This document shows positions 2,773 to 61,769 of a stretch of DNA of 64,000 nucleotides, piece by piece; the stretch's first letter is position 1, and each line of letters begins with the position of its first letter. The stretch comes from Octopus vulgaris (lineage: Eukaryota): contig OX597820.1 of NCBI GenBank assembly GCA_951406725.2, positions 49,786,001 to 49,850,000 on the forward strand, written 5' to 3'. Under the pieces are notes generated by a model that saw only the letters and a list, made by a program, of their open reading frames with translations, did no database searches and was not told where the DNA came from. Made by a program: the position numbers and the translations under genes.

Positions 2773-4183
2773 CTAGTTTCAGCTTATGAGCTGTGGCCAT
2801 GCTGGGGCACCGCCATTTGGTGTTGCTACTTGGTTTCACTTCATGGAGGCTTTCTAGCAACTGCTATTTGGTGCATGAGAGAGTTCGATGCAGCTGCCCT
2901 CATCTGCCCCTCCTGCCGTGAAGTTGGTTCATCTGGGACACCTGACAGGAAGAGATCCAGCTTCATTTTAAAGACATCTGTATCCACCCCATGCAGGTCT
3001 CTCAGGTTCTTCGGGAGGATATTGAAGAGCTGTGGGCCTCGGAAGCCCAGGCTATCACAGAATCTTGTCCTACATCTTGATGGCAGGTTTGGAGTCCTAG
3101 GCACCACGCAGTGGGGCCCAGTTCTGGCCTTTGCGTAACTCTCGATGCCAAAGTTCAGGACACTTCCCTCCAGGATCTTCCAGATGTATATTATGGCATA
3201 TCTTTCCCGCCTACGCTCCAGGGAATATAATTTTAATCTCTTGAGTCTTTCCCAGTAGCTCATATGCTGCACAGAGGCAATCTTCTTCGTGTAGCTTCGT
3301 TGGATCGCCTCAAGTTCTGTGATCAACTTGACACTGGATGGTGACCATAGCTGAGAGCAATAGTCAAAGTGGCTTAGGACAAGTGTCTTCCAGAGGACCA
3401 TCATGGTTTCTTGTTCTCTTGTTCTAAAGGTTCTAAGAATCCATCCAGCCAGCCGTCTACATTTCATTGTCAGTTTAGCAACATGTACATGAAAGGTCGC
3501 GTCATCACTCATGTGAATACCCAGGTCACGCACTGATTGTGCCTCTGGGATTGCAATCCCTCCGGGTCCAGTGTATTCATTGGGTATTGCATTCAGTTTT
3601 GCATGCTGATAGTATAAAGCTTGAAACTTTCCAGCATTGAACTGCATGCTATTCTTTTCAGCCCACTTGTATATTTCGTCCAGCTCACATTGCAGGTGTT
3701 TAGTGTCCTCAGGGTTCTGTATTGCCTGTGAAACTTTTGTATCATCTGCATAACTTGTGATCGTGGCTCTCTGCGTGGCTGAGGGCATGTCTGAGAGGAC
3801 CATTATGAACAGTAGTGGTCCCAGAACAGTGCCCTGCGGAACACCGCTCACTATTTGTGTGTTAATGGAGGTGGCCCCATTGGCTACTACCACCTGACTT
3901 CTATCCTTCAGAAAGTCATGAAGCCATTCTCCCAGTTTTCCAACTATGTTGAGATCACGCAGTTTGTGACATATCATTCCATGATCGACTTTATCAAAGG
4001 CCTTTGCAAAGTCGAGATATATCACTTCCACATTTGAGTGGTTGAGCAGCCGTTTCAGCACCCAGTCATAGTGTTGTAGGAGCTGAGTTAAACAGCTTCT
4101 CCCTGGTCGGAAACCATGTTGGGTGTCGGGCAGCAAGTCATTCTCTTCAAGGAAGGTGATCAGCTTCCTTCTGACTATTCGTT
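2741..4183 (-). mobile_element. 5'-truncated CR1/L2-group LINE with (AATC)n tail
   Basis: Contains an RT ORF, a short 3' UTR and a (GATT)n tail on the plus strand at 2741-2772; inserted between (TA)n tracts. Confidence 0.9.
2841..4136 (-). CDS. LINE ORF2 fragment: reverse transcriptase and C-terminal region (431 aa, uninterrupted)
   Basis: Motifs [61 protein letters not shown]; the endonuclease domain is missing (truncated). Confidence 0.9.
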
Positions 4184-25870: not shown

Positions 25871-26159
25871 CAATAAAATAACACGATCCTAGGCCTCTTT
25901 TGTATTTTCTCTATCGTAGGCGAAACGCGTCCCCGTTTTTGGCAATAGTCTTACCAAAATTAAACTATCTGTGCGCAAAATCAGCATATATATATATATA
26001 TATATATATTTACATATACGACGGGCTTCTTTCAGTTTCCGTCTACCAAATCCACTCACAAGGCTTTGGTCGGCCCGAGGCTATAGTGGAAGACACTTGC
26101 TCAAGGTGCCACGCAGTAGGACTGAACCCGGAACCATGTGGTTGGTAAGCAAGCTACTT

Positions 26160-27525
26160 TATTCTATAAAATTTGTCATTATAGACAGTACAAAGAATGT
26201 GTAGCTTTGCGGGCTGGACAAACACATTAATGAATGAAAATGAATTAAAATGAATAAATGAGAGACGAAACCCAACACCCGCCGATTGGATTTTTGACTT
26301 CGGGAGAGTGGAGCTCTTCTGCTTTTTCCAGAGTCTCTCCCCCACCTCCCGAATCCTTAGGTTCCTTCGGCGGGCAACTATTGTTGCCCGCCTTCTTCCT
26401 TTTTAATCCTTTTTGGGTTGAGGAGGCTGAAACCTCCTCGACCACATCCACCTCTCCCTTTGACCGAGTCGGGGAGGTGGCATCCAGTGACTGTTGCAGT
26501 ACCTTACCATGGTCCTGGGGCAGTTCCCTCAAGTATCACTGGATACCTGCAGCCAGCCATTTAAAAAAATCTGGATATACCAGATCTGTTGCGGCCGATG
26601 TTTGACACTTCCCAATCGACCGCCGGCAATACCCTTACATTTAAGAGCCTGGGCCTGCTATCCTCCAGTCCCCGTCGGATGGTATCTTCAATCCAACCCG
26701 CTTCGGTGCCTGAGGGTACCCACATACCCAGGCTATTATTAATTTCCTTCCGCAATACGACGGGGGGGGGGGGCAGAATTTCATTGCCTTCTAAAGGCTG
26801 ACTTGCAAACTGGCGAGCCTTTTCCCCGTTGACACCACGGGATATGAATTTCACAGAGGATAAATAGTCTTTCAGTTCATTTTCTATAACTGGTTTTGAG
26901 ACGACGGTGATGGAATCAAGAACTTTAGAATAAGTTCTAAGCACCACCGTCCTCTCCTCCATATCTTTTAACCACTGCTTAGGTGGGTTAATTTCCCACT
27001 CTAAGATAGAGTTCTTTTTAATTTCCTTCTCTGCCATGTCCAAAAAAAAAAACAGTTCAAAAGACAGTCTGCCAAAAATTGAACCGAATAAAAATAAAAC
27101 AAAAAAAGAGAAGGAAAGGAAACTGAAATTAAAATAATGAAAAGAATGAACCAAAATTTAGAAAGAAAGAAAAAGTAGAAGAAGGGAAAAATAAAGGAAA
27201 AAACTCACAAATAGAACAGACAGGTCATCCTTTGTATAGTACTCCAAACAGGTAATCCAATTAGGTTATTCTTGAAGTACTTCAGTTCGTAAAAAATTCC
27301 AGTTTTTCTGGCGAGATACACCCACTAGAATTTACAAAAAGAATATTCAAACAAAAATTCTCAATTCACCGTTATGGTGATGAGAACACAATATTTTGCT
27401 CGCTTTTGCTAGCCATAATTGACAATTTTTCTTTTTGTTCTTTTTTCTATTCACGGAGCCCAAAACTCACATCTTCTCATTGTAACAGTCCAGACCAACT
27501 AGTGTTGCATTCTGGGTAACCGGAA
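26160..27525 (-). mobile_element. ORF1-only (gag-like) non-autonomous retroposon, copy 1, internally deleted
   Basis: 15-bp TSD GTAAGC(A/C)AGCTACTT at 26145-26159 and 27526-27540; protein homologous to 59515-60776 (LEWE..PPKQW...RTVVLRTYS, KFISRGVN, GTEA.WIE.TIRRGL, MAG.RYPVILEG). Confidence 0.85.
26245..27037 (-). pseudogene. Tx1/L1-like ORF1 protein, frameshifted, zinc knuckle deleted
   Basis: Starts MAEKEIKKNSILEWEINPPKQW; ILEG is joined directly to NCPR, removing the CCHC motif seen in copy 2. Confidence 0.75.
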
Positions 27526-29937
27526 GTAAGCCAGCTACTTACCATACAGCCACTCCTGCGCCTATGGTGATAATGAATGCATTTTTCACACTTTGGTCCA
27601 CTGCTCCAAAGTCAGACGAGGATGTTAAATAAAGGAAGCTAAATTTTTTGGTGACAAATCAAGAGAGTGTTTATACAAAGATACTGACGTGATAGGTGAA
27701 AACGAATAGCTTATCAGGATTCAGGTCAAAAAATTGCTTCAAAAGCACCTGTCTATTCAACAGAAACATTTCCGTACATAAATTCTGTAGGACTATATAC
27801 CAATTTCTATATACTAATTTCAAATGACTGCTGTGTGAAAGCGATACTGAAAAACCGAGTCACAAAACATTGAGTGTTTTCAGAGAACATTACGACATTG
27901 GAGAGTAGAGTTAACAACAGGAGAAAGATGCAGTTAAGTACTTTCTCAAGTATTTGTCAACCATGAGAATTGCTATATTTACTTCTCTTGAAACACTCTT
28001 GTGAGTCTTGAACATTTTTATTAAGTGTGAACATTTGTGTTCACTCTCAGAATATGTAGGCATGTTATCGGCGACAGAATCAACGGCACACTTGATATGT
28101 GATGATGATGATGATGATGACGACGACGACGACGATGATAATAATCATAAGGATGATGATAATGATGATGAGGAGGACGACGACAATGACGATGATGTCA
28201 CTGGCTTAGTCACTAACCAGTAATGATCTTAGTCCATCTAGCTGTAAATAGGTGTCATAGTATTTTACAGTTGTTCCTTATACTGCGTCCCAGAGCCGAG
28301 CACTTAAATTTCTGCAGCTTAGTCTAGCTATGAATAAGTAGGGTCCATACAGCTATAGTTCCCTGTATGATATTATAGGTTGTGTTGGCGTTTTTATTGT
28401 GGAAACGAGTAACTCTAAGTTTGATATGAAAATGGTAGACTGTAGCATTCCTTTCTCATTCACTAAATGCTGCTGGGGAAAAATTACGTAGTGGAAAAAG
28501 ATACTCATACAGAATTTGAAACTTCCAAAAAATGTTACCATCTCTTTTTAGGCAACTTATTTGCCTTCATCCCTGATCAGAAACCTAACTTATGTGATCG
28601 TTCTCAACACAAAACTATGCTTAAAATGAGAGCATATCACACTGGAAATTAGAACTCATGTCATCCTTCTTTGTATTAACCTCATTCTTTTCTATTGTAG
28701 CTTCACTATGTAGTGATTTTTGTGGTGCTAATTTGTAGAAAGGCTTGTCTTAGAACTCTATAAAATTCTCTGTTGTTCAGGCGCTACAAAGTCGAGGCAT
28801 TTTGATCGGAAACATAAACATCCTTCTTCAGTGAACGACGGTAAGCATGTTGTTTCTGGACACCACCAGTTCATCAGATCTATGCGTCTCTTCGACCACT
28901 AAAATTTTGAGTTAAATGATAATTTAACATCAGCGTCATGTAGTAGATGTCTTTAGACAGATATTTACAAATATTGCGTTTACAATTCGCTTTTCCTTGC
29001 CAAGACATTTCGCCAGCGACTGTCATTTCTTGCTTGACTAAATTATTTTCTATTTCCTGTTTACCTGGTTCTGTTCACTAAGACCCAGGAAACGCTTTCG
29101 TTTGTTCTGAACAAATATCTTTCTTACATGAGGAAGGTGTAGCTAATAGCTACTCAATTACATATTAGCCAACTAGGAATGAGTAATTTAAACGTTATGC
29201 TGTTATTATCTAAAGATATCATAGCATCAACTCACGAAAAAAAAATCTACCTATCTTCTCATGGGAAACAACTTCTGACAGAAGGCTTGTATTCAGTGCG
29301 ACCCTGATTTTGTATAGAAACAAATCAGAAACCTCATGAACACATCTCCCCTTTCTAGAAAAATGGTTACAGGAATGAATATGCCGCTTTCACTTGTGTT
29401 TCCTGAATGGCATTGTGATTGAGGTATATACATAAGAAGGATAACTTCTTAGTCTACCATGCTGATCTACTGGAATCTTATTGTCAGTGCATGCACATAC
29501 ACATTCCCAGTAGTTGAGAAGAACCTGAAAGACTAAACTTCTTTAGAGGATACCTGAGATAAAGTAGAATTTAGGTATGACGAATGTTCTCTAAATGAAA
29601 GCATGTATATTACAGAAAGTCGATTTGATTTGTCTATTCGGCGACTTGATGACGCATCAACAAAGAAAGCCGATTAAATACGATAAACTGTGAACCAATC
29701 AACTATCAATACATCTGGTATTGTCTCGTTTTACTTGCATTTCAAAATCGACTGAAGTCAGAAAACCCCTCTTTGAAGGAGATATGAAATTTGTACTTCT
29801 TTGAAATAAATAAATGTGTCCTGAAGAAGTCTCAAAACCTCTGGAAAGAACATTGTATACGTACATGTACATACATAATACATATTACAAGGTCAGGTTT
29901 ATACCTGCAATATTCATGCATGTATATATATATATAT

Positions 29938-35322: not shown

Positions 35323-35720
35323 TCTTTTACACTTTTACTTGTTTCAGTCATTTGACTGCGGCCATGCTGGAGCACCAGCTTTAATCGAGCAACTCAACCC
35401 CGGGACTAATTCATTGTAAGCCCAGTACTTATTCTATCGGTCTCTTTTGCTGAACCGCTAAGTGACGGGTACATAAACACACCAGCATCGGTTGTTAAGC
35501 AATGCTAGGGAGACAAACACAAACATACACGCACACACACATATATATACACATACATACGACGGGCTTCTTTCAGTTTCCATCTACCAAATCCACTCAC
35601 AAGGCTTTGGTCGGTCCGAGGCTATAGTAGAAGACACTTGCCCAAGGTGCCACGCAGTGGGACTGAATCTGGAACCATGTGGTTGGTAAACAAGCTACTT
35701 ACCACACAGCCACTCCTGCG

Positions 35721-35723
<3 letters not shown>
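35321..35723 (-). mobile_element. Full-length tRNA-derived CORE-type SINE (family B) with internal microsatellite
   Basis: Minus strand AGGCGCAGGAGTGGCTGTGTGGTAAG (A box)...GATTCAGTCCC (B box)...CACCTTGGGCAAGTG (CORE-like)...3' (GTAAAAGA)n-type tail. Confidence 0.9.
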
Positions 35724-45709: not shown

Positions 45710-47105
45710 CACGGGTACGTAGAAACTCCGGGGTGGTGTCCGGCGTGCTGAAAGACCACTGGGAGTGAGGCGCCCCTCAGCTTTTGTTAAAGCACGTCTC
45801 TAGGAGAAGGTCACTCTGATATAAAACCAGATATGCAGGGAATGGCATTGAATATTTTGGGGGTCTTTGGTTTGTGCTAGAGATCACGGCGCTCCCACAT
45901 CCTTGAGCCTGCGACTTATATTGGTACCAGACATCTTGCTCCAGCTTGTCTCTGGATAATGTCAATAAAGGGGAGAGGGTCTATGAGGTGTTGTGCAAGC
46001 CTTATTGGACCTAAAACTCTGCACAGGCATTGCCGACCTCTTTTTTTATTCTCTATATATCTATCTTATTTTTAGTATATATTTTCTTCATTTTTAGTAC
46101 ATATATATTTTTTTTTATTCGGAAGGTGGTGAAGCATGCCGACCTGACGGGTTGGAAGCATGTAGTCAGCGACCTGCACGTAGGCGGCCCATGCTAGATA
46201 TAAAGTCGTCTCCTTGTCGCCCAAGACAATGGTAGGATTCGGTTGCTGCATGGGTGTCTGAGCAGCTCCATTTGGAGAGGGCACTGCTCACCTGGAGTCC
46301 GGGGAGGTTCTAGAAAAGGTGAACCAAAAATTGCCTGTCTTTCCATATCTGGTCAGTTTAGCGATTCGTGAGCTGAACCGCTATAAAATTGATATAGCTG
46401 CACTCTCAGAAACTTGTATAGAAGGTGATGGTCAGCTTGAGGAAGTAGGAGGCGGATGCACCTTTTTTTGGAAAGGAAGGCAGAAGGAGGAGCGCAGAGA
46501 GGCTGGTGTTGGTTTTACAGTCCGATCTGATATCCTGAAGAAGTTGGAAGAGTTCCCTGTTCCTATAAATGAACGTATAATGACCTTACGGTTGCACTTG
46601 AAAGGTAAGCGGTTTGCTACTCTGATAAGTGCCTATGCACCTACTTTGACTAGATGTGATGAAGATAAAATAATCTTTTATACCCAGCTGAGAGCCATAC
46701 TTAGAAAAATCCCCAATTCTGATAAAGTCATTCTAGTGGGGGATTTTAATGCCAGAGTTGGAACAGACTGGCAAACATGGAACTCTGTAGGACGTTTTGG
46801 AGTAGGGAAAATGAATAGCAATGGTCTCATGCTACTGGAGCTTTGCGAAGAACATGGACTTTACATTGCAAGTACTCATTTTGTGCACAAAGGTGATCAC
46901 ACAACAACATGGATGCATCCAAGGTCCAAAGTTTGGCACTTGCTGGATTACGTCATCATCCGCAAGCGCGAAATTTATGACATTTGTAATGCCAAGTCCT
47001 TGCATGGATCAGAATGTTGGACAGACCACAGTCTGGTGCGAGCAAAGTTCCGAATGGTGATTAGGGCGAAAGAGAGAAGAGGACCAGTCCTGTGTGTCCT
47101 GTAGC
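45710..47105 (+). mobile_element. RTE-clade LINE, 5' part (UTR + endonuclease), RT missing
   Basis: Higher-GC block bounded by (TATG)n-like tracts that contains the APE ORF. Confidence 0.75.
46319..47104 (+). CDS. Apurinic-like endonuclease domain of RTE LINE ORF (261-aa open fragment)
   Basis: IDIAALSET, GVGF, ERIMTLRL, ISAYAPT, GDFNARVG, TWMHPRSK.WHLLDYVI, TDHSLV. Confidence 0.88.
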   Translation: MNQKLPVFPYLVSLAIRELNRYKIDIAALSETCIEGDGQLEEVGGGCTFFWKGRQKEERREAGVGFTVRSDILKKLEEFPVPINERIMTLRLHLKGKRFATLISAYAPTLTRCDEDKIIFYTQLRAILRKIPNSDKVILVGDFNARVGTDWQTWNSVGRFGVGKMNSNGLMLLELCEEHGLYIASTHFVHKGDHTTTWMHPRSKVWHLLDYVIIRKREIYDICNAKSLHGSECWTDHSLVRAKFRMVIRAKERRGPVLCVL

Positions 47106-47556: not shown

Positions 47557-47967
47557 ACTCTTTTACTCTTTTACTAGTTTCAGTCATTTGACTGCGGCCA
47601 TGCTGGAGCACCGCCTTTAGTCGAGCAAATCGACCCCGGGACTTATTCTTTATAAGCCCAGTACTTATTCTATCAGTCTCTTTTTGCCGAACCGCTAAGT
47701 GACAGGGACGTAAACACACCAGCATCGGTTGTCAAGCGATGTTAGGGAGACAAACACAGACACACAAACATATACACACACATACATATATATACATATA
47801 TACTACAGGCTTCTTTCAGTTTCCGTCTACCAAATCCACTCACAAGGCATTGGTCGGCCCGGGGGCTATAGCAGAAGACACTTGCCCAAGATGCCACGCA
47901 GTGGGACTGAACCCGGAACCATGTAGTTGGTTAGCAAGCTACTTATCACACAGCCACTCCTGCGCCT
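47557..47967 (-). mobile_element. Full-length SINE family B (uninterrupted reference copy)
   Basis: Collinear with 35321-35723; shows the empty target site GTTAGCAAGCTACTT once. Confidence 0.9.
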
Positions 47968-58964: not shown

Positions 58965-59365
58965 TCTCTCTTTTTACTCTTTTACTTGTTTCAGTCATTT
59001 CGCAGTGGCCATGCTGGAGCACCGCCTTTAGTCGAGCAAATCGACCCCAGGACTTGTTTTTTGTAAGCCTAGTACTTATTATATCAGTCTCTTTTGCCGA
59101 ACCGCTACGTTACGGGGACGTAAACACACCAGCATCGGTTGTCAAATGAGGTTGGTGGGGGGGGGACAAACACAGACACACAAACACGTACACACACATA
59201 TACATATATATATATACATATATACGACAGGCTTCTTTCAGTTTCCCTCTACCAGATCCACTCACAAGGCTTTGGTCGGCCCGAGGTTTTAGTAGAAGAC
59301 ACTTGCCCAAGATGCCACGCAGTGGGACTGAACCCGGAACCATGTGGTTCGTAAGCAAGCTACTT

Positions 59366-61298
59366 TATTTTAAATAATTTGCCACTAGGGCAGCACACAG
59401 AGTAGTAGCTACGGGCTGGACAAGGACATTAATGGATGATGGTGGTGGTTGATGAAGATGGTGATGGGAGAAGTCGAAAGCGCCCGCCGACTTTTGCTTC
59501 TCTAAAACAATGTTTCAATAAATACATTTAATAAACAATGAAGCAAATTGTCTTGCCGCCTGCAGACAATTCTGCGACGACAAGTCGGGGCCTGCAAAGA
59601 GAAAGGTAAAGTCTTTCTTTTCAAAGGTCTCTGCGACCCTTGACAAAGTATCTTCTGTTACTTTTTCCGCAGCTACCTGCGGAGGCCATAACGGACTCCT
59701 TGAGCCGACCGTGTCCTTACGCTCTCGGTCACCCAAGCCATTCAAGAATCTTTCAACCTCCTCTCCCTTGTGGTAAAGGAGGAGAAGCATCTCCTCTTCA
59801 CAGAGAGGGACCTCACACTGCTCCGTCGGTGGCACACTTCCCACTGGCGGAGCCTTGTCCGCGGGTGGCACACATCCCACCCACGGCTCCGTCGGCGACA
59901 CAGAAACGTCAGTCGTCCGACCTCTCCTTTTTCTCCTCCTTCTTTTGGGGGAGACTGCTGACCCAGGGGACTCCGTCACCAGACACGGGGGATTGCTATC
60001 CCCCTTTGCCCCCTGAGCGTTCTTTGGCGGGCAACCATTGTTGCTCGCCTTTCTCTTTCTTTTCGTGGAGGCAACCTCCTCCACGACTTCCATCGTCTCC
60101 CCCTCCAATGAGGGGGCGGCGGGCGCCTTTTCCCCTCTCTGCTCCGGGGTACCACTACGGCCCCTGGGACAATTCTTCCTGATATGTCCGGGCTTCAGGC
60201 ACAGGTGACACTTGGGGGGGCGACCCTCGAGTATCACCGGGTACCTGTGCCCAGCCATTCTCAGGAAGTCCGGGAATTTCATTTCCCCCACGGCTATCGG
60301 TGTCCACAGGGTCAAAGTTGCCCTCGACCCCTGCCAGGCGACCGCGGGAGCCACCTTCACACTCAGCAGTCTGGGTCCGCTATCCCCCAGGCCTCGCCGG
60401 ATGGTCTTCTCGATCCATTCCGCCTCCGTGCCCGGGGGCAGCCCACACACCCAGGCTATTTTCACTTTTCTGCCACAATACGAGGGGAGGAACAAAATTT
60501 CCTCTCCCTCCAGTGGCTCGCTAGCAAATCTGCTAGCTTCCTCGGGGGTACCAAACAGCAACCAGACCGTTGCAAATTTACTCCCCGAGAAATAAATTTT
60601 ATAGTTGGCAGGTAGTCCCCCAACTCTTTCTCTATAGTATTCTTGTCGAAGAGGGCAATGGCTCCACGCGACCTAGAATAGGTTCGTAGGACCACCGTCC
60701 TCTTCTCAAGACTTTCAATCCACTGCTTGGGTGGGACGACCTCCCATTCCAAAGCGGTGGTTTCTTTTGTTGCCATGTTTTTTTTGTTTTTTTTTAAATA
60801 AATGTATTTAGAATAAAACTAAAAAACGAGAAGAAAAGGAAATCCGAAGAATGTCACAATGAAAAACGGAGAGAGTCAAATAAAGTTGAAAAGAAAGTCA
60901 AATAAAGTTAAAAAGAAAGTCAAAAACACAGCAAAATCCTTTTGGCCATTTGGTACTCCCGGCCTAAATCGAACCAGGATCGCACAACTTCCACAAAAAT
61001 TGGTGTAAAATTGGTAGTTCTTCACAGCACCATACAATTTTCACAATTCGAAGACGGATACGCCCCCCAAAATTTTCTCAGCGAGAAAAATATATCTGCC
61101 ACATGTCGGCAGAATCAGAATTCTGAATCCAGTAGGACTTCCTGCATGTAGAAAATAATTCTCAACAAAAACTCCCACTGGACCCAGAAAACAGAATCTT
61201 ACCTTACATGGGGCTTCCAAAGTTTCAATTCAAGACGGCTTCAAAAGCACATCTTCACTGCTTCAGTAGCAAACACAACACTGACTCGCACATGCGCA
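59366..61298 (-). mobile_element. ORF1-only (gag-like) non-autonomous retroposon, copy 2
   Basis: TSD GT(A/T)AGCAAGCTACTT at 59351-59365 and 61299-61313; ~520-bp 5' UTR, one ORF, ~150-bp 3' UTR ending ...TTTAAAATA; no RT or endonuclease. Confidence 0.88.
59515..60776 (-). CDS. Tx1/L1-like ORF1 nucleic-acid-binding protein with CCHC zinc knuckle (one frameshift near 60575)
   Basis: ORFs 60462-60776 and 59515-60561 join into ~420 aa; FPDFLRMAGHRYPVILEGRPPKCHLCLKPGHIRKNCP (CX2CX4HX4C); basic patches KRKRK and KRRRRKRR. Confidence 0.8.
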
Positions 61299-61769
61299 GT
61301 TAGCAAGCTACTTACCACACAACCACTCCTACGCCTATATATATGTATACTTATGTACAAACACATACCCACTCTCACCTCTCTCTCTCTTTCTCTCTTT
61401 CTCTCTATCTCCTATGTTTCTCTTTCTTCCCCCTCTCTTTGTTTCTCTTTCTCTCCTCTATCTCACTTCCACTCTTCTCCCTGATTCTTCACTCACTCTT
61501 TTTTCGTATGTGTTCCTCCCGTTTCGTCCTTCCTTATTTCTCCTCTTCTTTGCAAAACCTTTTTGACGCCACGTAACCAATCCGTTTCCTGTTGGAGCAG
61601 TAATCGTGTTAGCTTTCTCTCAGCCATGGGTTCCTCTTATTTTTCCATCATTCTTCCTATCCTGTTCTCTGTCTCTCTACTTTCCTCTTCAAGTCCAGTA
61701 GGACGTTTACCGTTTGCGATGCTTCTGCGTATGTCATGTCTCAAGCTGTCTCATTGCTCTCTCTCTCTT

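Follow-up and report, generated by a model that had tools for sequence, protein, structure and literature searches.

An ORF1-only retroposon, here called family A, occupies positions 59366-61298 of the window (the whole 64-kb stretch of octopus DNA that was analysed). The element and the SINE features around it lie on the minus strand. This copy is 1933 bp long, the full length of the family being ~1984 bp, and is 98.5% identical to an intact copy (L045). It begins with a 5' UTR of ~520 nt (60777-61298), the 5' end of which is common to 36 copies, and continues with ORF1 (59515-60776, with its ATG at 60776) and a 3' terminus carrying a 4-bp hairpin (59380-59392), which is found at the same position in 13 SINE-site ends and is common to an autonomous partner (see below). 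In intact copies ORF1 encodes 415 aa, predicted to form two RRMs and a CCHC zinc knuckle, followed by a basic low-complexity tail. An earlier note on this DNA had described a single CCHC ORF. The knuckle is present (60169-60210), and zf-CCHC is detected in 12/12 family members at E<=1 (best 2.8e-5), but the frame is broken in the window copy, into 104 aa from 60776 and 255 aa carrying the knuckle; the lesions are a gap of 1 nt near 60582-60586 and the loss of 48 nt at 59541. The window element has no match to an RT or an endonuclease. Fragments of other LINEs occur in the window as an RT-like ORF of 378 aa (2841-3977, minus strand) and an endonuclease-like ORF of 174 aa (46580-47104, plus strand). 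Contigs that include the element come from sequencing runs whose RNA origin is a guess, and they have no bearing on its transcription. The 5' ends of the window element (61285-61298) and of two related families, B and D, begin with GCGCATG-type motifs. These motifs presumably resemble the NRF1 promoter site, and the 5' ends may hold an internal Pol II promoter.

Two copies of a 15-mer bound the element, which has the same orientation as the tRNA-like SINE head in which it is inserted. The SINE 5' head (61314-61335) is followed by the upstream target copy (61299-61313), the element, the downstream target copy (59351-59365) and the SINE remainder (58988-59350). We take the motifs at 61315-61325 and 59325-59334 to be A-box-like and B-box-like, respectively. 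The 15-mer, at up to two mismatches, has 6 matches in the 64-kb window against 0.16 expected. Another SINE copy has an insert at the identical base (26160-27525, minus strand), an internally deleted, older ORF1-only element of a separate ~2.06-kb family (F), 84-90% identical to L063. It is bounded by its upstream target copy and SINE head (27526-27562) and by its downstream target copy and SINE remainder (25985-26159), both on the minus strand. Two further SINE copies, at 35341-35722 and 47575-47966 on the same strand, are empty. The sense insertion in a SINE head, the diverged relative at the identical site, the empty copies and the 5' and 3' motifs common to the two inserts had all been reported in the earlier note, and all of them hold.

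Rfam gives no tRNA match for the SINE head, ARAGORN finds no tRNA in the 64-kb window, and the likeness of the head to real tRNAs is weak (z up to 5.7). The label 'tRNA-derived' thus stands here for box-like motifs and a weak tRNA likeness only. The inserted element itself is not a SINE: it is ~2 kb long with a conserved ORF, whereas SINEs are non-coding and have a small-RNA-derived head.

Insertion at One Base of the SINE

A census of the whole genome with the exact 28-nt 3'-end pattern of family A gives 58 copies, all of which were retrieved; some of them belong to sister or chimeric families in which this end is identical. The 15-mer, at up to two differences, directly follows 57 of the 58 exact ends, and its first 6 nt alone follow the remaining one. 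Insertion is thus site-specific rather than scattered, as had been proposed from the window alone. The same holds for the proposal of a coherent family rather than mixed deletion products, given an ORF1 under purifying selection (see below) and 36 full-length copies, 1.93-2.02 kb long and with identical ends. The mean divergence between family-A loci is 1.6%. Further ORF1-only families (B, C, D, F, G and others), 1.5 to 2.3 kb in length, share this base. A looser pattern of 3' end plus target retrieves 1,017 junctions, against 1 with a reversed control. Exact 3' ends number 104 for the autonomous partner T1, 213 for ORF1-only family B and 58 for the A type. Empty SINE sites with an exact match number 53,949, and occupied ones with the identical downstream SINE sequence number 493. 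All genome counts come from one assembly.

Several unusual forms accompany these families. Chimeras are present at L058, L063, L066, L069, L070 and L080; in these, 5' ends have been exchanged between ORF1-only families or, in one unit, a family-B front is fused to the ORF2 half of T1. Very short inserts are found at the same base at L131 and L152 (G000:C1:39263561 and 119268618): one is 91 nt long, lacks an ORF and has the two ends of family B, and the other is a 36-nt 3' tip flanked by a complete 15-nt duplication. At L148 (G000:C1:111116890-111116969), two 3' ends lie back to back on opposite strands, with the target after each. At L034:1237-1900 (G000:C1:223715237), an A-type 3' end and the target are followed by ~680 bp that match none of the reference families, possibly a further short element.

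Target-Site Junctions

The window insertion had been described as duplicating 15 bp of the target. Two 15-mer copies are indeed present, but they differ at position 13, and the upstream one is likely supplied in part by the element. The difference is systematic genome-wide. Position 13 is A or T in similar numbers in the SINE population. At 17/17 informative junctions, the window copy included, the upstream target copy carries the base of the element (A) where the local SINE has T. The informative junctions derive from 60 that are terminal and have a 5' end of a recognised young type, 18 of which have T downstream; L063 was left out of the 17 because its recognised end is not the terminal unit, and L149 was scored by eye. 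The first ~10 nt of the upstream copy in the window would be a duplicate of the SINE and the last ~5 nt are likely element-derived, while the downstream copy is the original SINE sequence.

Five 5'-truncated copies have duplications of ~10, 10, 11, 12 and 15 nt. We infer that the duplication is ~10 nt long and is completed by target-like bases at the 5' end of the element, so that each full-length insertion would rebuild the site. C-type 5' ends often carry their own 14-nt variant of the target. At L064 and L124 the two target copies agree in private variants of positions 10-11; these, together with the truncated copy with a full 15-nt duplication, indicate that the junction varies.

The ORF1 Protein

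From a 109-row alignment, AlphaFold models the family-A ORF1 with a pLDDT of 90.6 and places two RRM-like units ahead of the knuckle; the model from a single sequence is uninformative (pLDDT 35). Foldseek with the former model retrieves two-RRM proteins (best E 3e-5) at a low whole-chain TM of 0.27-0.39, and the Atlas clusters are CCHC and ZCCHC3-like (0.91-0.93). The sole database match to ORF1 is from Octopus sinensis (67%). A weak search for longer, fused forms of ORF1 found none. An intact frame from ATG to stop is present in only 5 of the 36 full-length family-A copies in this assembly, and some of the breaks may be assembly errors.

The ORF1 core has a dN/dS of 0.11-0.25 (21 pairs among 7 ORF1-only representatives), which indicates, at the level of sequence comparison, that it is under purifying selection. 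Between families A, B and C its dS is 1.1-2.1. Its identity to the ORF1 core of T1 is 26-28%, and 40% for family D; no significant DNA match exists between family A and the autonomous element (best E 0.1). Because of the purifying selection and the identity of only 26-28% to the partner protein, the ORF1-only families are not recent deletion products. Taken with the dS values, these figures indicate that the ORF1-only lineage is old and that its protein has been retained. The families have the features of ORF1-present non-autonomous LINEs: an ORF1 without ORF2 that is homologous to the ORF1 of the partner, fixed ends within a family, and a 3' end common to an autonomous LINE.

A Probable Autonomous Partner at the Same Base

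The earlier note had suggested a search for longer elements with the same 3' end and an ORF2; one such element is T1, a 5.4-kb element with ORF1 and an endonuclease-RT ORF2 that is present in the same arrays as the ORF1-only units. The ORF2 domains over cut-off are PF03372, PF00078 and PF13966 (endonuclease, RT and zf-RVT). The closest solved relative of this ORF2 is L1 ORF2p (E 9e-67, against 5e-20 for R2), and its best named match is from Argonauta. Copies with full-length ORF2 frames exist. Among the 20 best-scoring further copies of T1, all 20 have their 3' ends at the same SINE base; 18 have an intact 5' end adjoining the SINE head, 2 are 5'-truncated and 1 is in tandem.

All SINE-site families, T1 and a second autonomous family (T2) included, end in the 4-bp hairpin and an A-rich tail. 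In the 13 SINE-site ends compared, compensatory changes keep both arms of the hairpin paired in E2, F and T2, and the hairpin is likely the recognition signal for ORF2. The 3' match of the ORF1-only elements to T1 and T2 is short (~25 nt). From the common target and 3' end, we infer that the ORF1-only elements borrow the ORF2 of the partner.

The partner fits the Tx1 clade, in which it is placed by its traits. These are an L1-group ORF2 with an apurinic-type endonuclease and RT, sequence-specific insertion in a multicopy target and, as judged on the family-A model, an ORF1 of RRM + CCHC type. Such a type I ORF1 is reported for Tx1-type elements (PMC5203782). An RT tree of unnamed relatives with one Argonauta and one coral protein, and with no named Tx1 reference, places the SINE-site T1/T2 as sister to a family that ends in (CT)n (support 100/98). 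The next autonomous families, at 74-77% RT identity, end in (CT)n (11/20) or (ATT)n (9/20), and in the SINE in 0/20.

Taken together, these results make it highly probable that family A is an ORF1-only family confined to one base of a high-copy octopus SINE head, and that it is trans-mobilised by a Tx1-like LINE with the same insertion base and the same 3' hairpin. In the mechanism we propose, the partner endonuclease would nick the bottom strand where the 15-mer begins, and the RT would prime on the hairpin-bearing 3' end of the element RNA, which family-A ORF1 may itself package. The top strand would be cut ~10 nt further on, and the 5' end of the element would contribute the last ~5 nt, restoring a full target upstream. 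Later elements, family A above all, could then land successively at the rebuilt upstream site.

Tandem Arrays

The 58 A-type ends lie at 40 loci, which by eye fall into 28 arrays, 10 solo copies (that in the window included) and 2 unclear cases. An array comprises the SINE head, the units with the target between them, and the SINE remainder. The units are separated by a 14-16-nt target copy, and the longest arrays hold 8 and 9 of them, head-to-tail and from up to four families. Neither the arrays nor the contribution of the element to the upstream target copy had been noticed in the earlier note. In 26 of the 28 arrays the A-type end is followed directly by another element, where random site choice, with 493 occupied and 53,949 empty sites, predicts ~2% (binomial P ~1e-34 at 2%). 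Stacking is seen in 1 of the 20 best T1 copies and in at least 5 of 100 listed T1 ends; in a survey of 40 loci from all families, 3 are arrays. Since the partner itself rarely stacks, a rebuilt target alone is insufficient to explain the bias of family A.

That the LINE and its passenger stack so differently at the same site is a sign that target choice has a component at the level of RNA or chromatin. Two leads for the cause may be considered. RNA from an arrayed master might read through the target and the next unit and pair with sites that match; in SART1Bm and R1Bm, the 3' end of the RNA has been described as pairing with the target (PMC7265360). Alternatively, chromatin might be open at the promoter of a resident element. 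It is plausible, if a little short of probable, that this one SINE base has long hosted a guild of ORF1-only retroposons and a LINE, each with the distal target nucleotides at its own 5' end and so rebuilding the site, and that family A is the stacking specialist among them, with a more than thirty-fold preference for occupied sites and HeT-A-like mixed arrays in mid-chromosome.

Both retrotransposition and local duplication contribute to the arrays, as the closest relatives of array members often lie on other chromosomes while some neighbours are near-identical. Copies diverge by 0.76% within arrays against 1.64% between arrays, and the C5a array has an X-Y-X-Y pattern; part of the array length is thus local duplication. 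Young A copies lie ahead of much older T1 copies at L052 and L056, which favours stepwise insertion. The downstream neighbour is the older in 10 of 12 pairs (p 0.034), a weak result biased by unequal family sample sizes, and at L068 the upstream A has diverged further than the unit that follows it. No listed contig among the independent ones, which are short, spans an A-B junction with 31 letters on each side.

Alternative Origins of the Arrays and of the Target

The correlated ages of neighbours and the one reversed case leave room for template jumping. With the same targeting and the same partner, an array might arise in one event, if the RT jumped from a finished RNA to a family-A RNA by way of a short target-like bridge. 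Jumping would account for the upstream position of A in 26/28 arrays while the partner is usually solo; it is also consistent with the correlated ages of adjacent units (rho 0.61, p 0.036, 12 pairs), and a B/T1 chimera and 5'-end swaps between families do occur. However, the ages of some neighbours differ several-fold (L073, and L052 with 0.72% against 3.78%), and L064 has a private variant in all three of its target copies, as expected from repeated duplication of local DNA. We consider a one-event origin unlikely, at perhaps one chance in a few, and prefer stepwise insertion.

Copying of arrays as read-through dimers (A-B or A-T1) from a few master loci is more doubtful still. One A subclade of 4 loci always precedes B-type ends, and at 3 of these the B copies are close, but A and B distances are not significantly correlated (Mantel rho 0.18, p 0.21, 10 pairs), and the partner label is unclustered on the A tree (9 changes against 10.2 when shuffled, 36/200). 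The copying of fixed dimers is thus unsupported by either test, both being of low power.

It is very improbable that the true target is a tRNA gene and that the SINE is struck as a look-alike. The site does lie between the A- and B-box-like motifs, and Tx1-type and other elements are described as inserting in small-RNA genes (PMC4494074, PMC3706591). Nevertheless, 30 tRNA loci of 6 isotypes all have at least 6 mismatches to the target, with a probe that was shifted by one base and derived from a variant copy. SINE sequence follows 38 of 40 surveyed junctions and another element the other 2, in a survey unfit as a test of specificity because its selection pattern includes the first 9 target bases. 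Lastly, that the short elements are unrelated LINE deletion products, or the arrays assembly artefacts, is scarcely credible: many copies have frameshifts and some are internally deleted, but the uniform lengths and ends of each family and the divergence of ORF1 (26-28% core identity to the partner, dS 1.1-2.1 between families) largely refute an origin by deletion, and up to four families are mixed in arrays at precise junctions.

Relation to Known Elements

Tx1-type LINEs have been described that insert into other transposons, are accompanied by non-coding passengers and form tandems (Kojima, 2015; PMC4494074). The cases include crocodilian Tx1-Mar and SINEU-3 in Mariner-N4_AMi, a Xenopus Tx1 in Tx1D, and Tx1-8_Crp and Tx1-4_AMi in LTR elements (PMC4494074). 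The octopus system resembles Tx1-Mar/SINEU in having a Tx1-type LINE in another transposon, a non-autonomous passenger with the same target and tandems that sandwich a target duplication. It differs in having a SINE head as its target, a single insertion base, passengers with a conserved ORF1 rather than non-coding ones, and arrays of mixed families that reach 9 units. Non-autonomous LINEs with an ORF1 are known as HAL1 in the L1 clade, HeT-A in the Jockey clade and Ag-Sponge in the CR1 clade (Kojima, 2018; PMC5786205); the passage on them lists no Tx1-derived or SINE-targeting case. Like these, the octopus elements join an ORF1-bearing 5' part to a LINE 3' end without ORF2; unlike them, they have an ORF1 of RRM + CCHC type and form several coexisting families.

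In the telomeric arrays of Drosophila, HeT-A is mixed with the RT-bearing TART and TAHRE (PMC5537684). Those arrays are likewise mixed, head-to-tail and in the same direction, with an RT-less element dependent on an RT-bearing partner, but they lie at chromosome ends and serve the host, whereas the octopus arrays are interstitial, at SINEs, with no sign of a host function. Utopia is occasionally found in tandem in U2 genes (PMC4640811); it shares tandem insertion at a preserved target and differs in having an endonuclease of another type. Other relevant literature includes PMC4824008 and PMC8967140. In its available text, a 2026 annotation of Octopus vulgaris lists 13 recently active L1-Tx1 families and mentions neither targets nor ORF1-only forms (PMC13282606).

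No SINE-targeting LINE or ORF1-only Tx1 derivative was found in the literature, Repbase, Dfam and subscription papers lying outside the scope of the search. Within that scope the suggestion in the earlier note that the combination is undescribed stands, but each ingredient has a precedent, in Tx1-Mar/SINEU, HAL1 and HeT-A. With this system, SINE heads join the targets of sequence-specific LINEs, and the Tx1 type joins the groups that have ORF1-only LINE derivatives. As several families conserve ORF1 past synonymous saturation, it also offers a natural test of why non-autonomous elements retain an ORF1 of their own.

Kibi and Koshi of the Tx1 clade target (TC)n and (TTC)n, respectively (PMC4494074). 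The sister family of T1 in the octopus genome ends in (CT)n and in this respect resembles Kibi, whereas the target of the partner lineage is a 15-mer of a SINE and not a microsatellite. The endonucleases of the sister LINEs with SINE, (CT)n and (ATT)n targets are 54-59% identical, and their presence in one genome makes target switching directly testable. The (CT)n sister is a young autonomous LINE (L101-L110, L120) with an endonuclease 58-59% identical to the SINE-targeting one. The (ATT)n-ending sister (G000:C4:93803211-93833344; L112, L116, L118) builds tandem arrays of its own, which on C4 have six RT matches ~5.87 kb apart and short ATT runs between the units.
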